Below are positions 10,353 to 61,245 of a stretch of 62,914 nt of DNA, piece by piece (within the stretch, counting starts at the first letter, position 1; every line of letters begins with the position of its first letter). Origin of the DNA: Sphingomicrobium sp. (GTDB lineage: Bacteria > Pseudomonadota > Alphaproteobacteria > Sphingomonadales > Sphingomonadaceae). The stretch covers positions 1 to 62,914 of the forward strand of contig DASWTR010000031.1 of NCBI GenBank assembly GCA_036402035.1, written 5' to 3'. The notes beneath the pieces are model-generated. The model had not been told where the DNA came from. It saw only the letters and a program-made list of their open reading frames with translations, and made no database searches. A program made the position numbers and the translations under genes.

Positions 10353-12449
10353 CTAGCGGCCCGCCGAGCCGATTTCCTTGGTCAGAAAGGCCCATTCCAA
10401 CGCGGCGCGAAGCGCGTCCTCGGTGCGGTCCGCATCGACCGAATGCCCGCCCTCCAGATACTCATGGTAATAAACCTTACTGCCCAATCCAGTCAGCTTC
10501 GCCGCCATCTTGCGGGCATGGCCCGGGTGAACGCGATCGTCCTTCGTTGAGAGATAGACGAACATCGGCGGATAGCGCACGCCCGACCGAACCGCCTGAT
10601 AGGGCGAATATTTGCCGAGAAAGGCCCAGTCCGCGGGCTTGTCCGGGTCGCCATATTCGTCGATCCACGACGCGCCGGCCGACAGGTGCGAATAGCGCTT
10701 CATGTCGAACAGCGGCGAGCCGGCGATCACCGCCGAATAAAGGTCGGGGTGCTGGGTCATTGCCGCGCCGACTAGCACTCCGCCATTCGATCGGCCGGAG
10801 ATCGCAACGCCATCCTTCCGGGCGACACCCGTCTGGATTAGGTCGCGAGCCACCGCTTCCAGATCGTCGAAACTGTTCTGGCGTTTTTCGCGCAGCGCGT
10901 CGCGCCACCAGCCAGGTCCATATTCGCCGCCGCCGCGAATATTGGCCAGCACGAATGCCCCGCCATCCTCGACCCAGAACAGGCCGAGCGGCCCGGAGCG
11001 ATAAGGCTGCGCTGTGAGATAGGTCGGAGTCTGCGCGCTCCTGAAGCCGCCATAGGCATGGATCAGCGCGCCGGTCGGCTTGGTCACTCCTTTTTTGCGC
11101 ACCAGGAAGTAGGGCACACGGGTGCCGTCCTTCGAGGTGGCGAAGCGCTGGTCGACGGTGAACTTCGACGCGTCGAACTGGGCCGGCAGCGCCTGGACGG
11201 TGCCGATCTTGCCGGCCGCATCGACCGACATCAGCGCGGTCGGCGTCAGCATGCCCTCAACGGTGGCGAAGGCGATGTCTTGCTTGTCCGCGGTGGCCGC
11301 AATGTGAATGGTGCTGTTGCCGGGCAGCGGCATCGCCTTGCTCGACCAGCTGCCATCGGCCCCGCGGCGCAGCGCGAACAATTTCCCCGACACATCGTCC
11401 AGCGCCTTGACCCACAGCACATTGTCGCTGGCCTGGACCTCCTCGATCGCCTGGCTTTTGCTCGGCGCCATCACCAGCATCGGCGCCGGCTTCTGCCCGG
11501 CCAGCATCTGCTGGATATCGAACGCCACCACGGAGCCTGGCTGGAACTGGCCCAGGGGTTCCACCAGGGTAGCGATCGCCTGACCCGAAACCACCACATT
11601 GAATTCGGCCGTCTCGGGGATCGGCAGCTGCACCCAGCGCCCGTCCGGCGCGCGCATCGATACGCGGGATTCATAGAAGCCCACATTGCGGCTGATCGCA
11701 ACGCGGCGGACGTCGCCGTCCATCACTGCGAACGGGCTGATGCCGATATCGGCTTCGGTGCCCTCGGTCACGACAGTTGCCGCGCTCCATGGCGTGCCGC
11801 GCTTCCACTCCTTGACGATCCGCGGATAGCCGGAGCGGGTCACCGTCCCCTCGCCTTCGGCCATCGCCACCAGCAGCGTGTCGCGGTCAACCCAGGTGGC
11901 GGTGTTCTTGCTCTCCGGCACCGAGAACCCGCCCTCGACGAACTTGCCCGACGGCAGGTCGAACTCGCGCACCACATCGGCGTCGCTGCCGCCGGGGCTC
12001 AGCGATACCAGGCAGCGCTGATATTCGGGCGGCAGGCAGCTCGCGCCGTGCCACACCCAGCTCTTGCCCTCGGCTTTGCCCAGCGCGTCGACGTCGATCA
12101 GCGTCCGCCATTGCGGCGTGCCGGCGAGATAGGCGGCGAGCGGCGATGCCCGCCACAGCCCGCGCTTGTGATTGGCGTCGACCCAATGGTTCAGAACCAA
12201 GTCCCCCAGCACGGCGTCGGGAGTCGCGATCTGGTTGGGATCGTTGAGGAGCTTCAGGCCGCGGGCCTGCCGATCCTCGAAGCCGGGTACGGACCGCAGC
12301 GACGCCTCGGCATCGGCATTCCACTGCTTGACCTGCGCGATCGCGCGATCGCCCTCGACTTCCTCCAGCCAGAGATATGGGTCGTCTGCCTGGGCAAAGC
12401 CGGCGGTGGCGAGAACGGTGGCGGCGGCGGTGAGAATGAGTTTACGCAA
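10353..12449 (-). CDS. Secreted prolyl oligopeptidase (S9A)
   Basis: Signal peptide, DDPYLWLE, nucleophile motif GRSNGG, DDRVHP and GGH. Confidence 0.93.
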   Translation of the reverse strand: MRKLILTAAATVLATAGFAQADDPYLWLEEVEGDRAIAQVKQWNADAEASLRSVPGFEDRQARGLKLLNDPNQIATPDAVLGDLVLNHWVDANHKRGLWRASPLAAYLAGTPQWRTLIDVDALGKAEGKSWVWHGASCLPPEYQRCLVSLSPGGSDADVVREFDLPSGKFVEGGFSVPESKNTATWVDRDTLLVAMAEGEGTVTRSGYPRIVKEWKRGTPWSAATVVTEGTEADIGISPFAVMDGDVRRVAISRNVGFYESRVSMRAPDGRWVQLPIPETAEFNVVVSGQAIATLVEPLGQFQPGSVVAFDIQQMLAGQKPAPMLVMAPSKSQAIEEVQASDNVLWVKALDDVSGKLFALRRGADGSWSSKAMPLPGNSTIHIAATADKQDIAFATVEGMLTPTALMSVDAAGKIGTVQALPAQFDASKFTVDQRFATSKDGTRVPYFLVRKKGVTKPTGALIHAYGGFRSAQTPTYLTAQPYRSGPLGLFWVEDGGAFVLANIRGGGEYGPGWWRDALREKRQNSFDDLEAVARDLIQTGVARKDGVAISGRSNGGVLVGAAMTQHPDLYSAVIAGSPLFDMKRYSHLSAGASWIDEYGDPDKPADWAFLGKYSPYQAVRSGVRYPPMFVYLSTKDDRVHPGHARKMAAKLTGLGSKVYYHEYLEGGHSVDADRTEDALRAALEWAFLTKEIGSAGR

Positions 12450-56865: not shown

Positions 56866-57996
56866 ATGATGGGCTTGTCCCTCACCCGCATGATGGCGGT
56901 GCTGACCAAGGAGTTCACGCAGCTGGTCCGCGACCGCCTGACCTATGCCATGATCATCGGCGTTCCGGTGTTTCAGCTGCTGCTGTTCGGCTATGCGATC
57001 AACACCGATCCCAAGCATCTGCCGACCGCGGTACTGGTCCAGGACCAGGGGCAGTTTTCCCGCTCGATTCTCGGTTCGCTCCAGCGCAGCGATTATTTCC
57101 GGATCGACCATGTCGCCCGCTCGCCGGCCGAGATGGATGGGCTGATCGAGCGCGGCGCCGTCCAGTTCGCGATCACCATTCCGGGCGATTTCACCCGCCG
57201 CGTCGTGCGGCAGGACAATGCCCAGATACTGGTCGAAGCCGACGCGTCCGACCCGGCCGCCACCGGCAGCGCGGTCGCCGCGCTGGCTTCGCTCCCAACC
57301 GAAGGCTTGAAGCACGACCTCAAGGGCCCGCTGGCGCAACCCGCCATGGCGCCACCGTTCGAGGTCGTCGTCCAGCGCCGTTACAACCCGGAAAGCATCA
57401 CCAGCTACAACATCGTCCCCGGCCTGGTCGCGACCATCCTTACCATGACCTTGGTGATGATGACCGCACTGGCCATGACACGCGAGACCGAACGCGGGAC
57501 GATGGAGACTTTGCTCTCCACGCCGCTGAGGCCGCTGGAGGTGATGGTCGGCAAGCTGACCCCGTTCGTGCTGGTCGGGATCATCCAGGCGACGATCATT
57601 ATCTCCATGGCCTGGCTGCTGTTCGGCGTGCCGATGGCCGGCGGCTGGGCGGCGCTGATCCTTGGCCTGTTCCTGTTCATCGTCGGCAGCCTGGCGCTCG
57701 GCTTTCTGGTCTCGACCGTCGCCCGCAACCAGCTGCAGGCGATGCAGATGAGCTTCTTCTACTTCCTGCCCTCGATCCTGCTCAGCGGCTTCCTCTTTCC
57801 GTTCCGCGGCATGCCCGAATGGGCGCAATGGCTGGGCTCCATCCTCCCCGTCACCCACATGCTGAGGGTGGTCCGCGGCGCGATGCTCAAAGGGGTCGGC
57901 CTGGCTGAGGCGGCGCCGAGCCTAGGGGCGCTGGCCCTGTTCGTGGTGATCGTCGCCGGGATCGCCGTGAAGAAGTACCGGACGACGCTGGATTAG
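56866..57996 (+). CDS. ABC-2 type permease (YbhS/R-like)
   Basis: KEFTQLVRDR, YNP, RETERGTME and LLSGF motifs. Confidence 0.93.
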   Translation: MMGLSLTRMMAVLTKEFTQLVRDRLTYAMIIGVPVFQLLLFGYAINTDPKHLPTAVLVQDQGQFSRSILGSLQRSDYFRIDHVARSPAEMDGLIERGAVQFAITIPGDFTRRVVRQDNAQILVEADASDPAATGSAVAALASLPTEGLKHDLKGPLAQPAMAPPFEVVVQRRYNPESITSYNIVPGLVATILTMTLVMMTALAMTRETERGTMETLLSTPLRPLEVMVGKLTPFVLVGIIQATIIISMAWLLFGVPMAGGWAALILGLFLFIVGSLALGFLVSTVARNQLQAMQMSFFYFLPSILLSGFLFPFRGMPEWAQWLGSILPVTHMLRVVRGAMLKGVGLAEAAPSLGALALFVVIVAGIAVKKYRTTLD

Positions 57997-57997
57997 C
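57969..57997 (+). repeat. Direct repeat, copy 1 (permease 3' end)
   Basis: GAAGAAGTACCGGACGACgcTGGaTTAGC is 26/29 identical to 60244-60272. Confidence 0.85.
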
Positions 57998-58000
57998 CTA

Positions 58001-58048
58001 ATGTCCGCACTTGGCCGTTTGTGGCCGAAAGGGGTGGAAAGTGCCTAC
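58001..58048 (+). repeat. Cassette-boundary site 1 (half-site plus 28-bp unit)
   Basis: ATGTCCGCACT-TGGCCG-TTT then GTGGCCGAAAG-GGGTGG-AAAGTGCCTAC; overlaps the VOC stop. Confidence 0.65.
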
Positions 58049-58434
58049 GATGTCAGGTTTTCCATGGCTTCCGCTTTCTTGAACTCAAACAGCTCAATGA
58101 GGTTACCCGACGGGTCTTCCACGAGCCTCGCGCGCCCGGCACCTGCCTCGCTAATCTCTCCCTTGAACTTAGCGCCAGCGTTGCTCAGCCGCTCGATGAG
58201 AGCGTCGATGCGGTCAGTAACCAACATGAACCTGTTCCAACCGCCGGGCTGTGGATCGCCTCCCGCCGTGCCTCCACTGCCTGCACCGGGCGCACTGAGG
58301 TAAAGCGTTAGGTCGTTATGTTTGAGCGCCGCGAACTTCCCCGGATTATGCATTTCAACATCGAACTCGAGCCTGTCCCGATAAAATTCGACCGAGCGAT
58401 CAACATCGCTCACAATGTATCTAACGGATGCCAT
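58045..58434 (-). CDS. VOC/glyoxalase family protein
   Basis: VRYIVSDVDRSVEFY...PGGWNR...DPSGNLIELFE pattern; AAGGAG RBS. Confidence 0.9.
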   Translation of the reverse strand: MASVRYIVSDVDRSVEFYRDRLEFDVEMHNPGKFAALKHNDLTLYLSAPGAGSGGTAGGDPQPGGWNRFMLVTDRIDALIERLSNAGAKFKGEISEAGAGRARLVEDPSGNLIELFEFKKAEAMENLTS

Positions 58435-58520
58435 TGCATGCACTCCTTGCCCTTGAGACGATCGCTCAGCCGGAGGACAAACGCAAACGCCAGCGAAGGC
58501 TTCCCAATTATCGGTCGCCG

Positions 58521-58548
58521 GTGGCAGGAATGGGTGGAAAGCGGACAT
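58521..58548 (+). repeat. Cassette-boundary site 2 (28 bp)
   Basis: GTGGCAGGAAT-GGGTGG-AAAGCGGACAT, 18 nt past the DUF1993 stop. Confidence 0.75.
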
Positions 58549-58566
58549 CTGCGGCGGTCGGGACTG

Positions 58567-59079
58567 CTACTCCGCGTTCGGCACCTTATGCCGATCCATA
58601 TGGGGCAAGAAATCCATCTTGCCCACGGCCAACCCCGCGCTGCGCAGCAAGGCATATGCCATCGTCACGTGGAAGTAGAAGTTTGGCATAATCCAATCTC
58701 GAATGTCCTCTTCCGACGTCATCAAAAAGCGGACGCCATTCGGCAATGTTAGATCGACAGCCACATCTGGTGCCGCCCATTCCGTCGGGTCCGCTTGATC
58801 AATCTGCGAGCGCACCGCGGCAATGCGTTCGCGAAGCTCCGCGAGCGATCGATAGGGCGCCTCTTCGAGCGGCACTGTTTTCCCGGCGACTTGATTGAGT
58901 GCCAACAGCACCTGATTGATTGCGACGCGAAACTGCAACTCTAAAGTAAACATGTCCTCGGTGAGTTTCACCGCCAACACATCGTCCGCCATACCGGCCT
59001 CCTCGGCCTTGGCAACGAGGTGATCGAGAGTGCCGAGCATGTCGGCGAAGACTATCCGAGCTGAATGAGCGTAAGACAT
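58567..59079 (-). CDS. DUF1993 family protein
   Basis: KLTEDMFTL...PNFYFHVTMAYALLRSAGLAVGKMDFL pattern. Confidence 0.88.
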   Translation of the reverse strand: MSYAHSARIVFADMLGTLDHLVAKAEEAGMADDVLAVKLTEDMFTLELQFRVAINQVLLALNQVAGKTVPLEEAPYRSLAELRERIAAVRSQIDQADPTEWAAPDVAVDLTLPNGVRFLMTSEEDIRDWIMPNFYFHVTMAYALLRSAGLAVGKMDFLPHMDRHKVPNAE

Positions 59080-59130
59080 CACGGACGCTCTGCAGCAGAG
59101 TCTCAAATCGGTCAAAACATCCAGCAGTTA

Positions 59131-59179
59131 AGGTCGGCAATGGGGTCGATTGTGGCCGCTAAGAGTGGAAAGCGGACAT
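59131..59179 (+). repeat. Cassette-boundary site 3 (half-site plus 28-bp unit)
   Basis: AGGTCGGCAAT-GGGGTCGATT then GTGGCCGCTAA-GAGTGG-AAAGCGGACAT, 6 nt past the stop of 59186-59464. Confidence 0.75.
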
Positions 59180-59185
59180 CACCGC

Positions 59186-59464
59186 TCAGAGGCAAGGTCC
59201 GACCATACAGGAGGCGGACAAGGTAAGCATGGGCAGCAGGAAGATGGAGACGAGGGTATAGGCAATGCCAACCGCGATGATAACCGATACCCGCCACTTC
59301 GATGTCAGCAATGCCGCCATGCCGACGGACCAGATTGCGATAAGGATGCTCGCGATGCGCAGCTCTCCCGAGGTGGTGAGCAAAATCCTCAAATGTGCCA
59401 GCGAATAGATGAGAAACGGCGGCGCCAGCACCATGATCGCGATCGTTCGGAAAGTGCGCGGCAT
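59186..59464 (-). CDS. Small hypothetical membrane protein (3 TM)
   Basis: 92-aa hydrophobic ORF ending SCMVGPCL; it fills the space between two repeat sites. Confidence 0.6.
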   Translation of the reverse strand: MPRTFRTIAIMVLAPPFLIYSLAHLRILLTTSGELRIASILIAIWSVGMAALLTSKWRVSVIIAVGIAYTLVSIFLLPMLTLSASCMVGPCL

Positions 59465-59488
59465 TAATCCAGCTTAGCTGAGCCGGCC

Positions 59489-59499
59489 ATGTCCGCAAC
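59489..59499 (+). repeat. Cassette-boundary half-site 4
   Basis: ATGTCCGCAAC is a left arm only; its first 9 bp match 58001-58009. Confidence 0.55.
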
Positions 59500-59568
59500 G
59501 ATCCAGCCGCCCCGCGATCCTCTCGGGCCTTTCCTTGAAACGCGGGCGGATCGGCCCATAATCCTGTC

Positions 59569-60237
59569 ATGGACATGCGGCCTGCCTATCCGTCCTTGAA
59601 CGATCGGATGACCAGCTATTGGGAGCGCGGCGTGCGCATCGCGACGCGCTTCGCGATCGCGTTCGGCCTGTCGACGCTGGCCGGTATCGGCATCGGATTT
59701 GCCGTGACCGACAATGTGTTGGCCCAAATCTTCGTCACCGTCCTCGCCGCCTTCGCGCTGTGGATCCCGTTCGTAGTCGGGGTTGCGCGCTTCGAAGGGT
59801 GGCGGGAAGCGCGGCGCAATCGCAAGGCGCTGGCCGGCCTGCCGATCGCCCAACAGGCCAACAAGCCTTTCGAGCAGGATTGGCAGCGCCTGTGGGCCGT
59901 AGCGCCGACGGAGCGGTCCCGGCTCTCGGCAATCAAATCCTCGATCGACCGGAGCCGGCTGGCGCTGGGCAAGGCCGAACTCGACCCGAACGCGCATGAT
60001 CTGTGCGTACTGATCGACCGGCGCCTGCCCGAGCTAATCCGCCACGAGCTGGACGATCTGCCGCCCGACGATGCCGGCCGGCGCCGCCAGGTCGGCGAGC
60101 TGATCGACCTGGTCGAGCAGTTCGCCCGGCATTGCGGCCGCCAGCGCGACGGCGTTTCCAGCGGCAAATCGCGCGAGGCGGAAATCCTTCGCCGCCGCTT
60201 CGAGGCCCGGCTCGCCGATTATCGCGACGGGCTGTGA
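59569..60237 (+). CDS. Hypothetical membrane protein (2 TM plus helical domain)
   Basis: 222-aa ORF with host-like codon use. Confidence 0.7.
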   Translation: MDMRPAYPSLNDRMTSYWERGVRIATRFAIAFGLSTLAGIGIGFAVTDNVLAQIFVTVLAAFALWIPFVVGVARFEGWREARRNRKALAGLPIAQQANKPFEQDWQRLWAVAPTERSRLSAIKSSIDRSRLALGKAELDPNAHDLCVLIDRRLPELIRHELDDLPPDDAGRRRQVGELIDLVEQFARHCGRQRDGVSSGKSREAEILRRRFEARLADYRDGL

Positions 60238-60243
60238 TTCCCG

Positions 60244-60272
60244 GAAGAAGTACCGGACGACCTTGGCTTAGC
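60244..60272 (+). repeat. Direct repeat, copy 2 (duplicated permease 3' end, KKYRTTLA*)
   Basis: GAAGAAGTACCGGACGACctTGGcTTAGC; first 18 bp identical to 57969-57986. Confidence 0.85.
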
Positions 60273-61245
60273 GCTTCGCCGCCGTCCGCTGCTCCGTGGT
60301 CCAGTCGATCGGCCCTTCGGCAAAGCGCTGGCGCAGCCGCTCGAGCGAGATCCGGTTGCCCTCGGTAAAGAAGCCGGCCAGCTGCCGGCCTGCTTCGTCA
60401 TCGGCATAGCCGGCGCTGACCAGACGGACCCGGGTCCGTCCCTCGCCGGCCGGTTCCAGCTCGATCCAGTGGGTCGTGCGGCTGAAGCTTTCGAAATTGG
60501 GGAACCCCTTGGGCGCCTTGGTGGTGCGGAAGGCGATCAGCCGCTCCGGCACCTTGAGGATGATCTGCTGGCGGATGGTGGTGTCGTCGCCGCGCGCCGC
60601 CGCCGGGGCATAGCTGGTTTCCAGCAGTTCGCCCTCCATCCAGGCAGTCGGCACCGCCCAGCTTTTCCAGCCCTCGGCGGTGGCGATCGCGGCCCAGGCC
60701 TCGGCTGGCGGGGCCGCGACCGTCGTTTCGTGAACCAGAATCTGACTGCCGTCCGCCGCCTTCTCGGCGCGGATCGACACCGGCGCCGCGACGCGCCGAT
60801 ACACCACTGTCCGATTCATCGACGGCAGGTCGGCGGACGAGGTCACGGACTGGTAAGCATCCGCGCCCTGCCGCTGCCAATGCGTGGCGATGGCGATGTC
60901 CTTGCCGTCCTTGGTGCGATGACGCTCGGTGCCGAAGTCGAGCCGGTCGCCGTCGCCTTTCATCGAGCCGCGACTGACGCCCCCGACCGAGTTCCAATAG
61001 GTGTAGCTGACGCCCTGTCCGTCGCGGCTGTAGATGGTCTCGCCACGATAAAGCTTCTTGCCGCCCTTCACCTCATGGCGGTCGCGGATATGCTGGCCAT
61101 CATAGAGGCTGTCGTAGCAGTGGGTGTCGACCTGGCCGTTCTCGAACTTCCCTTCCCAGCAATGGCCGACCAGGAAGGCCATCGGCTGGAAGGCCGGGGG
61201 GATCGTCGCGGGCTCCGCGGCCAGCGCGGCAAGCAGGATCAGCAT
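60268..61245 (-). CDS. Secreted two-domain protein with a C-terminal SRPBCC domain
   Basis: Signal peptide, AFLVGHCWEG N-terminal domain and VAAPPAEAWAAIATAEG...GRTRVRL START-like domain. Confidence 0.72.
   Translation of the reverse strand: MLILLAALAAEPATIPPAFQPMAFLVGHCWEGKFENGQVDTHCYDSLYDGQHIRDRHEVKGGKKLYRGETIYSRDGQGVSYTYWNSVGGVSRGSMKGDGDRLDFGTERHRTKDGKDIAIATHWQRQGADAYQSVTSSADLPSMNRTVVYRRVAAPVSIRAEKAADGSQILVHETTVAAPPAEAWAAIATAEGWKSWAVPTAWMEGELLETSYAPAAARGDDTTIRQQIILKVPERLIAFRTTKAPKGFPNFESFSRTTHWIELEPAGEGRTRVRLVSAGYADDEAGRQLAGFFTEGNRISLERLRQRFAEGPIDWTTEQRTAAKR

Follow-up and report, generated by a model that had tools for sequence, protein, structure and literature searches.

Integrons stack single-gene cassettes with the help of the tyrosine recombinase IntI, an attI site and attC sites that have RYYYAAC...GTTRRRY ends and act as single-strand hairpins, and orphan cassette arrays lacking the enzyme are known as CALINs. 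Tn916 and Tn1549 are large conjugative elements with arm-binding integrases, inverted arms at their ends, a mismatch-tolerant 6-bp junction and a circular intermediate, while FimB/FimE-type invertases invert one fixed switch. IntI is further marked by an extra insertion in its catalytic domain, according to the accessible part of one source (PMC8138268). On Acinetobacter Rep_3/OrfX plasmids, pdif modules consist of single accessory genes bounded by arm-6-arm sites with crossover in the spacer; the sites tolerate one spacer mismatch, alternate in orientation and have the host XerC and XerD boxes as arms, and the enzyme may act in trans (PMC13141974, accessible part).

The window studied here is the whole analysed stretch of 62,914 nucleotides from a Sphingomicrobium sp. 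genome, labelled G000; other G numbers are compared genomes, and C and L label contigs and loci. It contains a three-cassette array bounded by 12-6-12 sites. These are the likely recombination sites of a system of gene cassettes driven by a tyrosine recombinase of about 200 aa that consists of the catalytic domain only. From left to right the array comprises a double site (58000, 58020), a VOC gene, a site at 58520, a DUF1993 gene, a second double site (59130, 59151), a 3-TM gene and a left arm with a decayed core at 59489, with the following features:

56866..57996, plus strand: ABC-2 permease (Pfam), left flank, with an insertion hotspot at the 3′ end
57969..57997, plus strand: 29-bp direct repeat, copy 1, at the permease 3′ end; single copy in G001
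58000..58029, plus strand: site 1a, first half of a double site with 20-bp offset, core TGGCCG at 58012-58017; 20.3 bits with the general model
58020..58049, plus strand: site 1b, core GGGTGG at 58032-58037; the VOC stop lies in its decayed right arm; 10.6 bits
58045..58434, minus strand: cargo 1, VOC/glyoxalase protein, 129 aa (PF00903, E 4.5e-13)
58520..58549, plus strand: site 2, core GGGTGG at 58532-58537; 35.5 bits; homology to G166 and G033 begins here
58567..59079, minus strand: cargo 2, DUF1993 protein, 170 aa (PF09351, E 8.5e-34); the cassette recurs in G166, G033 and G251
59130..59160, plus strand: site 3a, core GGGTCG at 59143-59148 with an additional G; opens a double site (20-bp offset) and forms the right end of the DUF1993 cassette
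59151..59180, plus strand: site 3b, core GAGTGG at 59163-59168; 31.2 bits
59186..59464, minus strand: cargo 3, small membrane protein of 92 aa, or 82 aa if begun at the ESM Atlas start
59489..59505, plus strand: site 4, right end of the array, with a decayed core beside an intact left arm; below the profile threshold
59569..60237, plus strand: 222-aa gene with its own promoter-like sequence, in the duplicated block and not bounded by sites; homologues occur in other contexts
60244..60272, plus strand: second copy of the 29-bp direct repeat (90% identical), closing on the right the 2.3-kb block missing in G001

The original prediction, made from the window alone, described an integron-like array of small genes separated by 11-6-11 sites, and its motif copies are present at the places and in the common orientation it gave, one overlapping the VOC stop codon, one lying 18 nt from the DUF1993 stop and one 6 nt from the 3-TM stop; the low GC of the array is likewise real (0.571 against 0.648 for the window). 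Pfam supports the proposed identities of the VOC and DUF1993 genes, and the 92-aa product of the 3-TM gene has no Pfam, NCBIfam or PADLOC match and resembles unnamed ESM Atlas clusters (score 0.96). The 6-bp core of the predicted layout stands, but the arms measure 12 bp with a conserved GCT/AGC extension, not 11. Left arms had also been said to mark both array ends, which is true of 59489, likely the remnant of the first target, and wrong for 58000, which is half of an overlapping double site, as is 59130, the first half of another with a 20-bp offset and no lone arm. Site 2 has a possible decayed partner core at 58512-58517, noted by eye, and the core at 58012-58017 reads GGGTCG in other public contigs as against TGGCCG in the window. 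Public contigs back the assembly of the array, and a run from a second study contains the cassettes with few differences; an excision reading of one contig joint that skips 58548-59143 was dropped, only 20 letters being present on one side. The predicted lack of a recombinase extends to the entire contig, where no PF00589 match was found. The prediction did not include the double sites, the existence of two core types, a candidate enzyme or the 29-bp duplication round the insert.

An iterated profile from G000 and G033 gives the site family the consensus AATGWCCGCAAT-GGGT(C/G)G-AAAGCGGACATT, with a 12-6-12 layout and two core types, GGGTCG and GGGTGG, that differ at core position 5. The profile, trained partly on these sites, finds 37 of them in G000 at 13 bits or more and none in the reversed genome, which excludes chance as their source, and an earlier profile from seven seeds gave 35 against 1 in reversed sequence above 16 bits. 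The sites of G000 are clustered, with nine on contig C360, for example. An 18-letter pattern with one mismatch allowed matches in 30 of 36 genomes of the genus versus 3 of 24 others, a 20-letter pattern occurs in 60 of 301 genomes of the order, and counts per genome range from 0 to 89; two long double-site patterns had no match in the viral and genome collections.

The sites had been predicted to be neither attC nor dif, and both statements are upheld. No RYYYAAC...GTTRRRY pair spaced 40-150 nt apart occurs on either strand between 57900 and 60350, none of six site folds shows a notable hairpin (z from -1.55 to +1.11), and Rfam gives no match at E up to 1 in 57900-60400. The arms are unlike those of a dif-like 28-bp site near position 2014 on the minus strand of contig C304 in G000, recognised by its motif and probably the chromosomal dif. 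Like integrons and CALINs, the family stacks diverse AT-richer single genes, forms orphan arrays and is associated with a tyrosine recombinase; unlike integrons, it has no attC cores or hairpin and no single attI/promoter platform, its genes lie in either orientation, and the enzyme gene can have an array running outward on either side. The single AT-richer genes, the frequent lack of a nearby enzyme and the stop codons that often touch a site would also suit a divergent integron or CALIN with atypical attC sites, but with neither a core pair nor a folded site, with genes in both orientations and with a 203-aa enzyme that aligns to XerD without a large insertion, this origin is very improbable.

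The sites were followed across relatives in 513 copies, which represent site clusters fetched from several genomes rather than whole genomes, with up to 177 sites from one genome in the fetched stretches alone. Neighbouring sites within 3 kb share an orientation in 393 of 404 pairs, and in 112 of 114 pairs in two further genomes (G069 and G072). They bound variable single genes in tandem arrays, as a profile scan suggested by the original prediction was meant to find, and recurring cassettes stand among unrelated flanks in same-orientation arrays, which bears out its proposal of cassette stacking. The segments have a median length of 576 bp, and by a longest-ORF rule 231 of 312 contain an unambiguous gene, which runs against the core direction in 149 and with it in 82 (81 segments are ambiguous); Pfam-confirmed cassette genes also lie in both directions relative to the cores, and only within this window is gene orientation relative to the sites uniform. 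Stop codons often touch a site in these segments too, and no promoter motif was found at a fixed distance from the sites. The cargo is diverse, with 231 proteins in 213 clusters, and none of 12 cargo proteins matched in PADLOC. One 680-bp cassette has three copies in G016 (L245 3817, L247 4856 and L249 13637; 86-92% identity, two apparently frameshifted) and another in G002 (L222 6421); found near switch points, it was considered as a helper and set aside, since it appears to encode an ordinary small protein and no obvious helper.

The ends of these units lie at the cores. Homology of the DUF1993 cassette to other genomes ends at sites, with sites at both ends and different neighbours in G166 (86%), G033 and G251; at its right end homology to G166 and G033 stops at 59144, and other public contigs diverge at 59143. 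These belong to eight homologous loci examined, of which two more have a site on one side and three have none above threshold, and all three VOC homologues examined likewise lack a site above threshold. Twenty-one homologous cassette pairs (75% identity, 80% cover; some pairs share members) were found among 404 segments, and all 21 keep their orientation within unrelated flanks, unlike the switch of FimB/FimE. G072 contains a 378-nt unit twice, 99.4% identical inside, with inner arms that are identical even in a rare variant and seven of nine differences in the two outer arms; identical inner and differing outer arms place the crossover at the 6-bp cores. The unit is therefore not one gene plus a downstream site, as had been supposed, and runs instead from core to core with the inner arm of both sites; the assignment to tyrosine-recombinase-type sites, based on the arm-6-arm layout, is in accord with breakpoints at cores. 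Cassette-facing arm pairs are also more complementary than pairs permuted within the same genome, the same locus or the same core class (n=312, z 4.0-5.8), and no such covariation is seen between the arms of one site or between outer arms. The signal is significant in only two of six single genomes and was not replicated in G069 and G072 (n=92, z 1.3), so it counts as supporting evidence only.

These observations bear on whether the sites are a dispersed palindrome of the REP or MITE kind, the genes between copies being swapped by homologous or illegitimate recombination, as many scattered copies often close to stop codons and conserved double units of 35-37 bp might suggest. Sites keep a single orientation within arrays, however, the arms within a site do not covary and form no notable hairpin, breakpoints fall at cores, and the family is tightly linked to one enzyme clade; a palindrome copied as one unit in either orientation is not what was found. 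This explanation is already largely refuted and can be given only a small probability.

The permease locus itself varies among relatives, and the empty and differently filled alleles sought there were found. In the closest relative, G001 (94% permease identity), gene 60268 follows immediately after the permease stop and the whole insert is missing, and G070 has a four-site array in the opposite orientation after the same stop, so that there is no fixed platform. G163 has one weak site at this position, and nine of 11 other newly fetched permease loci, as well as G001, have no site after the stop. The block missing in G001 measures 2.3 kb, includes gene 59569 and is bounded by the 29-bp direct repeat, and so probably has a second history apart from the sites; the duplicated 29 bp of the permease 3′ end suggest that an insertion or deletion took place separately. 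Gene 59569 was rejected as a cassette, only three of eight metagenome loci having a single site, two of those more than 2 kb away. Upstream of it lies a promoter-like TTGAAA-16-CATAAT at 59535-59562, largely kept in homologues, whose homology starts just before this sequence; the gene belongs to no Pfam family and its homologues occur in varied contexts.

Linkage of the sites to a tyrosine recombinase, another of the suggested checks, was found in relatives, where sites flank the gene for a 203-aa enzyme. This PF00589 gene (E 3e-18; G033:C1:2131852-2132460) emerged in G033 from a scan of 74 ORFs between sites and lies at the junction of a minus and a plus array. The catalytic residues R54, K82, H151, R154, H177 and Y186 are conserved, and the XerH, XerA and Cre catalytic domains are among the structural matches of the predicted model (pLDDT 86), as are Tn916/Tn1549-type enzymes. 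The model has no N-terminal core-binding domain, its catalytic helices beginning at residue 23, and the protein aligns to XerD 132-283 without a large insertion; unlike IntI, it therefore has neither a core-binding domain nor the extra insertion. Among the best 120 homologues almost all have lengths of 199-214 aa, and the closest named relative is from Sphingomonas hankyongi (85%). At about 200 aa with a catalytic domain only, the enzyme resembles FimB/FimE (PRK09870/PRK09871, profile lengths 198-200), but does not reach the cut-off of that family (22-23 bits versus 221-222).

Eight enzymes form a close clade (SH-aLRT 94 in a quick tree of 97 relatives); all eight have an outward GGGTGG site and seven have one on both sides, and in G007 the distances between the gene and its two sites are 46 bp and 3 bp. 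Array orientation switches are back-to-back GGGTGG in nine of 11 cases, six of which contain the enzyme, although the loci were partly chosen for it. Back-to-back GGGTGG switch points without a recombinase were seen at L249 13402-13666, L244 2398-2744, L041 1499-1586 and L323 4296-4599; such points are possibly emptied or replaced enzyme modules, and at the switch point of G069 no remains of an enzyme are present. Core type tracks enzyme clade. In more distant relatives across Proteobacteria the arms recur with inward-facing TGGCCG or GGGTCG cores, and 80 of their loci yield 191 sites versus 10 in reversed sequence, 60 within 1 kb of the gene, with a model that was seeded near the genes. The link between the sites and this candidate enzyme appears strong. 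The relatives are numerous: 7,999 of 8,000 scored proteins and about 9,900 GTDB stretches with a pattern match, and they occur on 331 plasmids, some from Escherichia and Klebsiella. On the E. coli plasmid NZ_OM105940.1 (L097, 4965-5567) a 56% relative lies beside IS26 with weak site-like matches on both sides. Variable genes between short inverted repeats, subject to site-specific recombination by an enzyme that was not identified, were reportedly described in the Z/fun region of phage P2 by Nilsson et al. in 2004, and these repeats, set beside the present system by description only, may be an early sighting of its enterobacterial branch. The recombinase on contig C327 (L065) of G000, although adjoining a site, was rejected as the cognate enzyme, being a P4-like integrase at a tRNA-Ser with a premature stop; there the integrase lies at 10851-11939, the tRNA-Ser at 12086-12176 and the cassette site at 10681, and in G023 (L088) the small recombinase occupies the same tRNA-Ser.

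Likeness to pdif lies in arm-6-arm sites with crossover in the spacer that bound single genes. The family differs in its near-palindromic arms, unlike those of host dif, in its chromosomal and scattered arrays, in cores that read one way (the 393 of 404 pairs above) and in a dedicated, linked small recombinase. The main rival reading keeps the same enzyme and sites and has them work as in pdif modules, with GGGTCG and GGGTGG of opposite polarity and two crossovers via cointegrates in place of single-gene circles. Double sites, that is pairs less than 45 bp apart and mostly at 35-37 bp, run GGGTCG then GGGTGG in 56 of 76 cases (14 of 18 in G069 and G072), as this reading would have it; the arms that face the enzyme are those facing inward in double sites, and the enzyme gene, lying between inverted sites, could not be excised alone. 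Outside the genus, moreover, 41 of 59 long pairs of neighbouring sites are inverted, a poor fit to single-cassette excision, and two arrays round the recombinase, in Massilia (L157, 26 sites) and Pseudomonas (L184, 11 sites), contain GGGTCG and TGGCCG cores that point in opposite directions, an arrangement closer to that of dif modules. Strict alternation is absent, however: left and right cores of cassettes are independent (Fisher p=0.8) with the same core on both sides in 141 of 299 typed cassettes, although undetected decayed double sites could hide alternation, and arrays occupy many chromosomal places with only seven viral contigs matching the strict site. Neither a like-with-like core rule nor a strict two-core exchange rule is supported by the pairing data. 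A hidden polarity of the two core types, which would allow pdif-like alternation, is possible, and double crossover of this kind is on balance unlikely, at something under one chance in five.

Genomes with a close-clade enzyme have a median of 55 sites versus 3 and 7 otherwise (p=8e-4, kin not being independent; p=0.008 without G033 and the unpublished G020). The close enzyme was not found in G000 (79% complete), G001 (95%), G002 (74%, 89 sites) or G166 (85%), and of five genomes that are both near-complete and rich in sites, the close clade is present in one, two carry distant relatives or a fragment only, and two, G069 (99%, 57 sites) and G072 (100%, 60 sites), have none. The close enzyme accompanies many sites, and many sites need no enzyme today; loss after use would account for site-rich genomes without it, as with CALINs. 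These same two genomes might instead indicate that the sites are the substrate of a host enzyme (XerC/XerD or another), the small recombinase being a passenger that uses them, particularly since the only PF00589 genes of G072 are two Xer-sized and one phage-type, in a genome that carries the 99.4% identical, very recent cassette duplicate. Set against this are arms unlike the dif-like site on C304, the agreement of core type with enzyme clade, and the range of 0 to 60 sites among near-complete members of the genus although Xer is a housekeeping system, which together leave a host enzyme improbable.

Under the favoured reading, in which the small recombinase moves single cassettes, the enzyme would bind the arms on double-stranded DNA and cut at the edges of the 6-bp core, by analogy with Cre/Xer chemistry. 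The core-to-core unit between two direct sites would be excised as a circle whose junction forms a new complete site, and the circle would be inserted at another site or a look-alike, so that array growth at many chromosomal places would require no fixed attI or promoter; none of the data contain an excised circle. One mismatch at core position 5 (GGGTCG/GGGTGG) is apparently tolerated, as the independence of left and right cores suggests. Double sites would be too short for excision and may be stable junction units that offer both cores. The enzyme gene itself appears to be mobile and often lost, leaving orphan arrays like that of the window, where it would act in trans or was lost after use. 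Such a scheme resembles Tn916/Tn1549 in its inverted arms, its 6-bp junction tolerating mismatch and its presumed circle, but the units here are single genes of 0.3-1.5 kb and the junction is conserved.

Plasmid recombinases shorter than 200 aa in one family are regarded as likely defective in the accessible part of one paper (PMC3414803); the accessible part of PMC8138268 makes no mention of a catalytic-only subgroup, and that of PMC13586616 none of inverted repeats, palindromes or integrons. No description of the site-cassette system was found in the literature searched, which covered listings and the opening parts of abstracts, along with passages of papers such as PMC3091744 and PMC6379469. 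The array is real and likely represents an undescribed cassette system. It works like integrons and dif modules and departs from them in defining features, and there is a slightly better than even chance that it represents a third class of gene-capture platform beside them, in which a mobile recombinase of 200 aa, lacking a core-binding domain, founds and fills arrays across Proteobacteria at many places in the chromosome, using double-stranded 12-6-12 sites with clade-specific cores and leaving orphan arrays after its loss. Integron and dif finders would miss such arrays. The 203-aa recombinase and its 30-bp site could make a very compact engineering tool and are easily tested; if the interpretation is correct, the catalytic-only enzyme would challenge the view that such recombinases need a core-binding domain, and the system would explain a large share of the small strain-specific genes in these bacteria.
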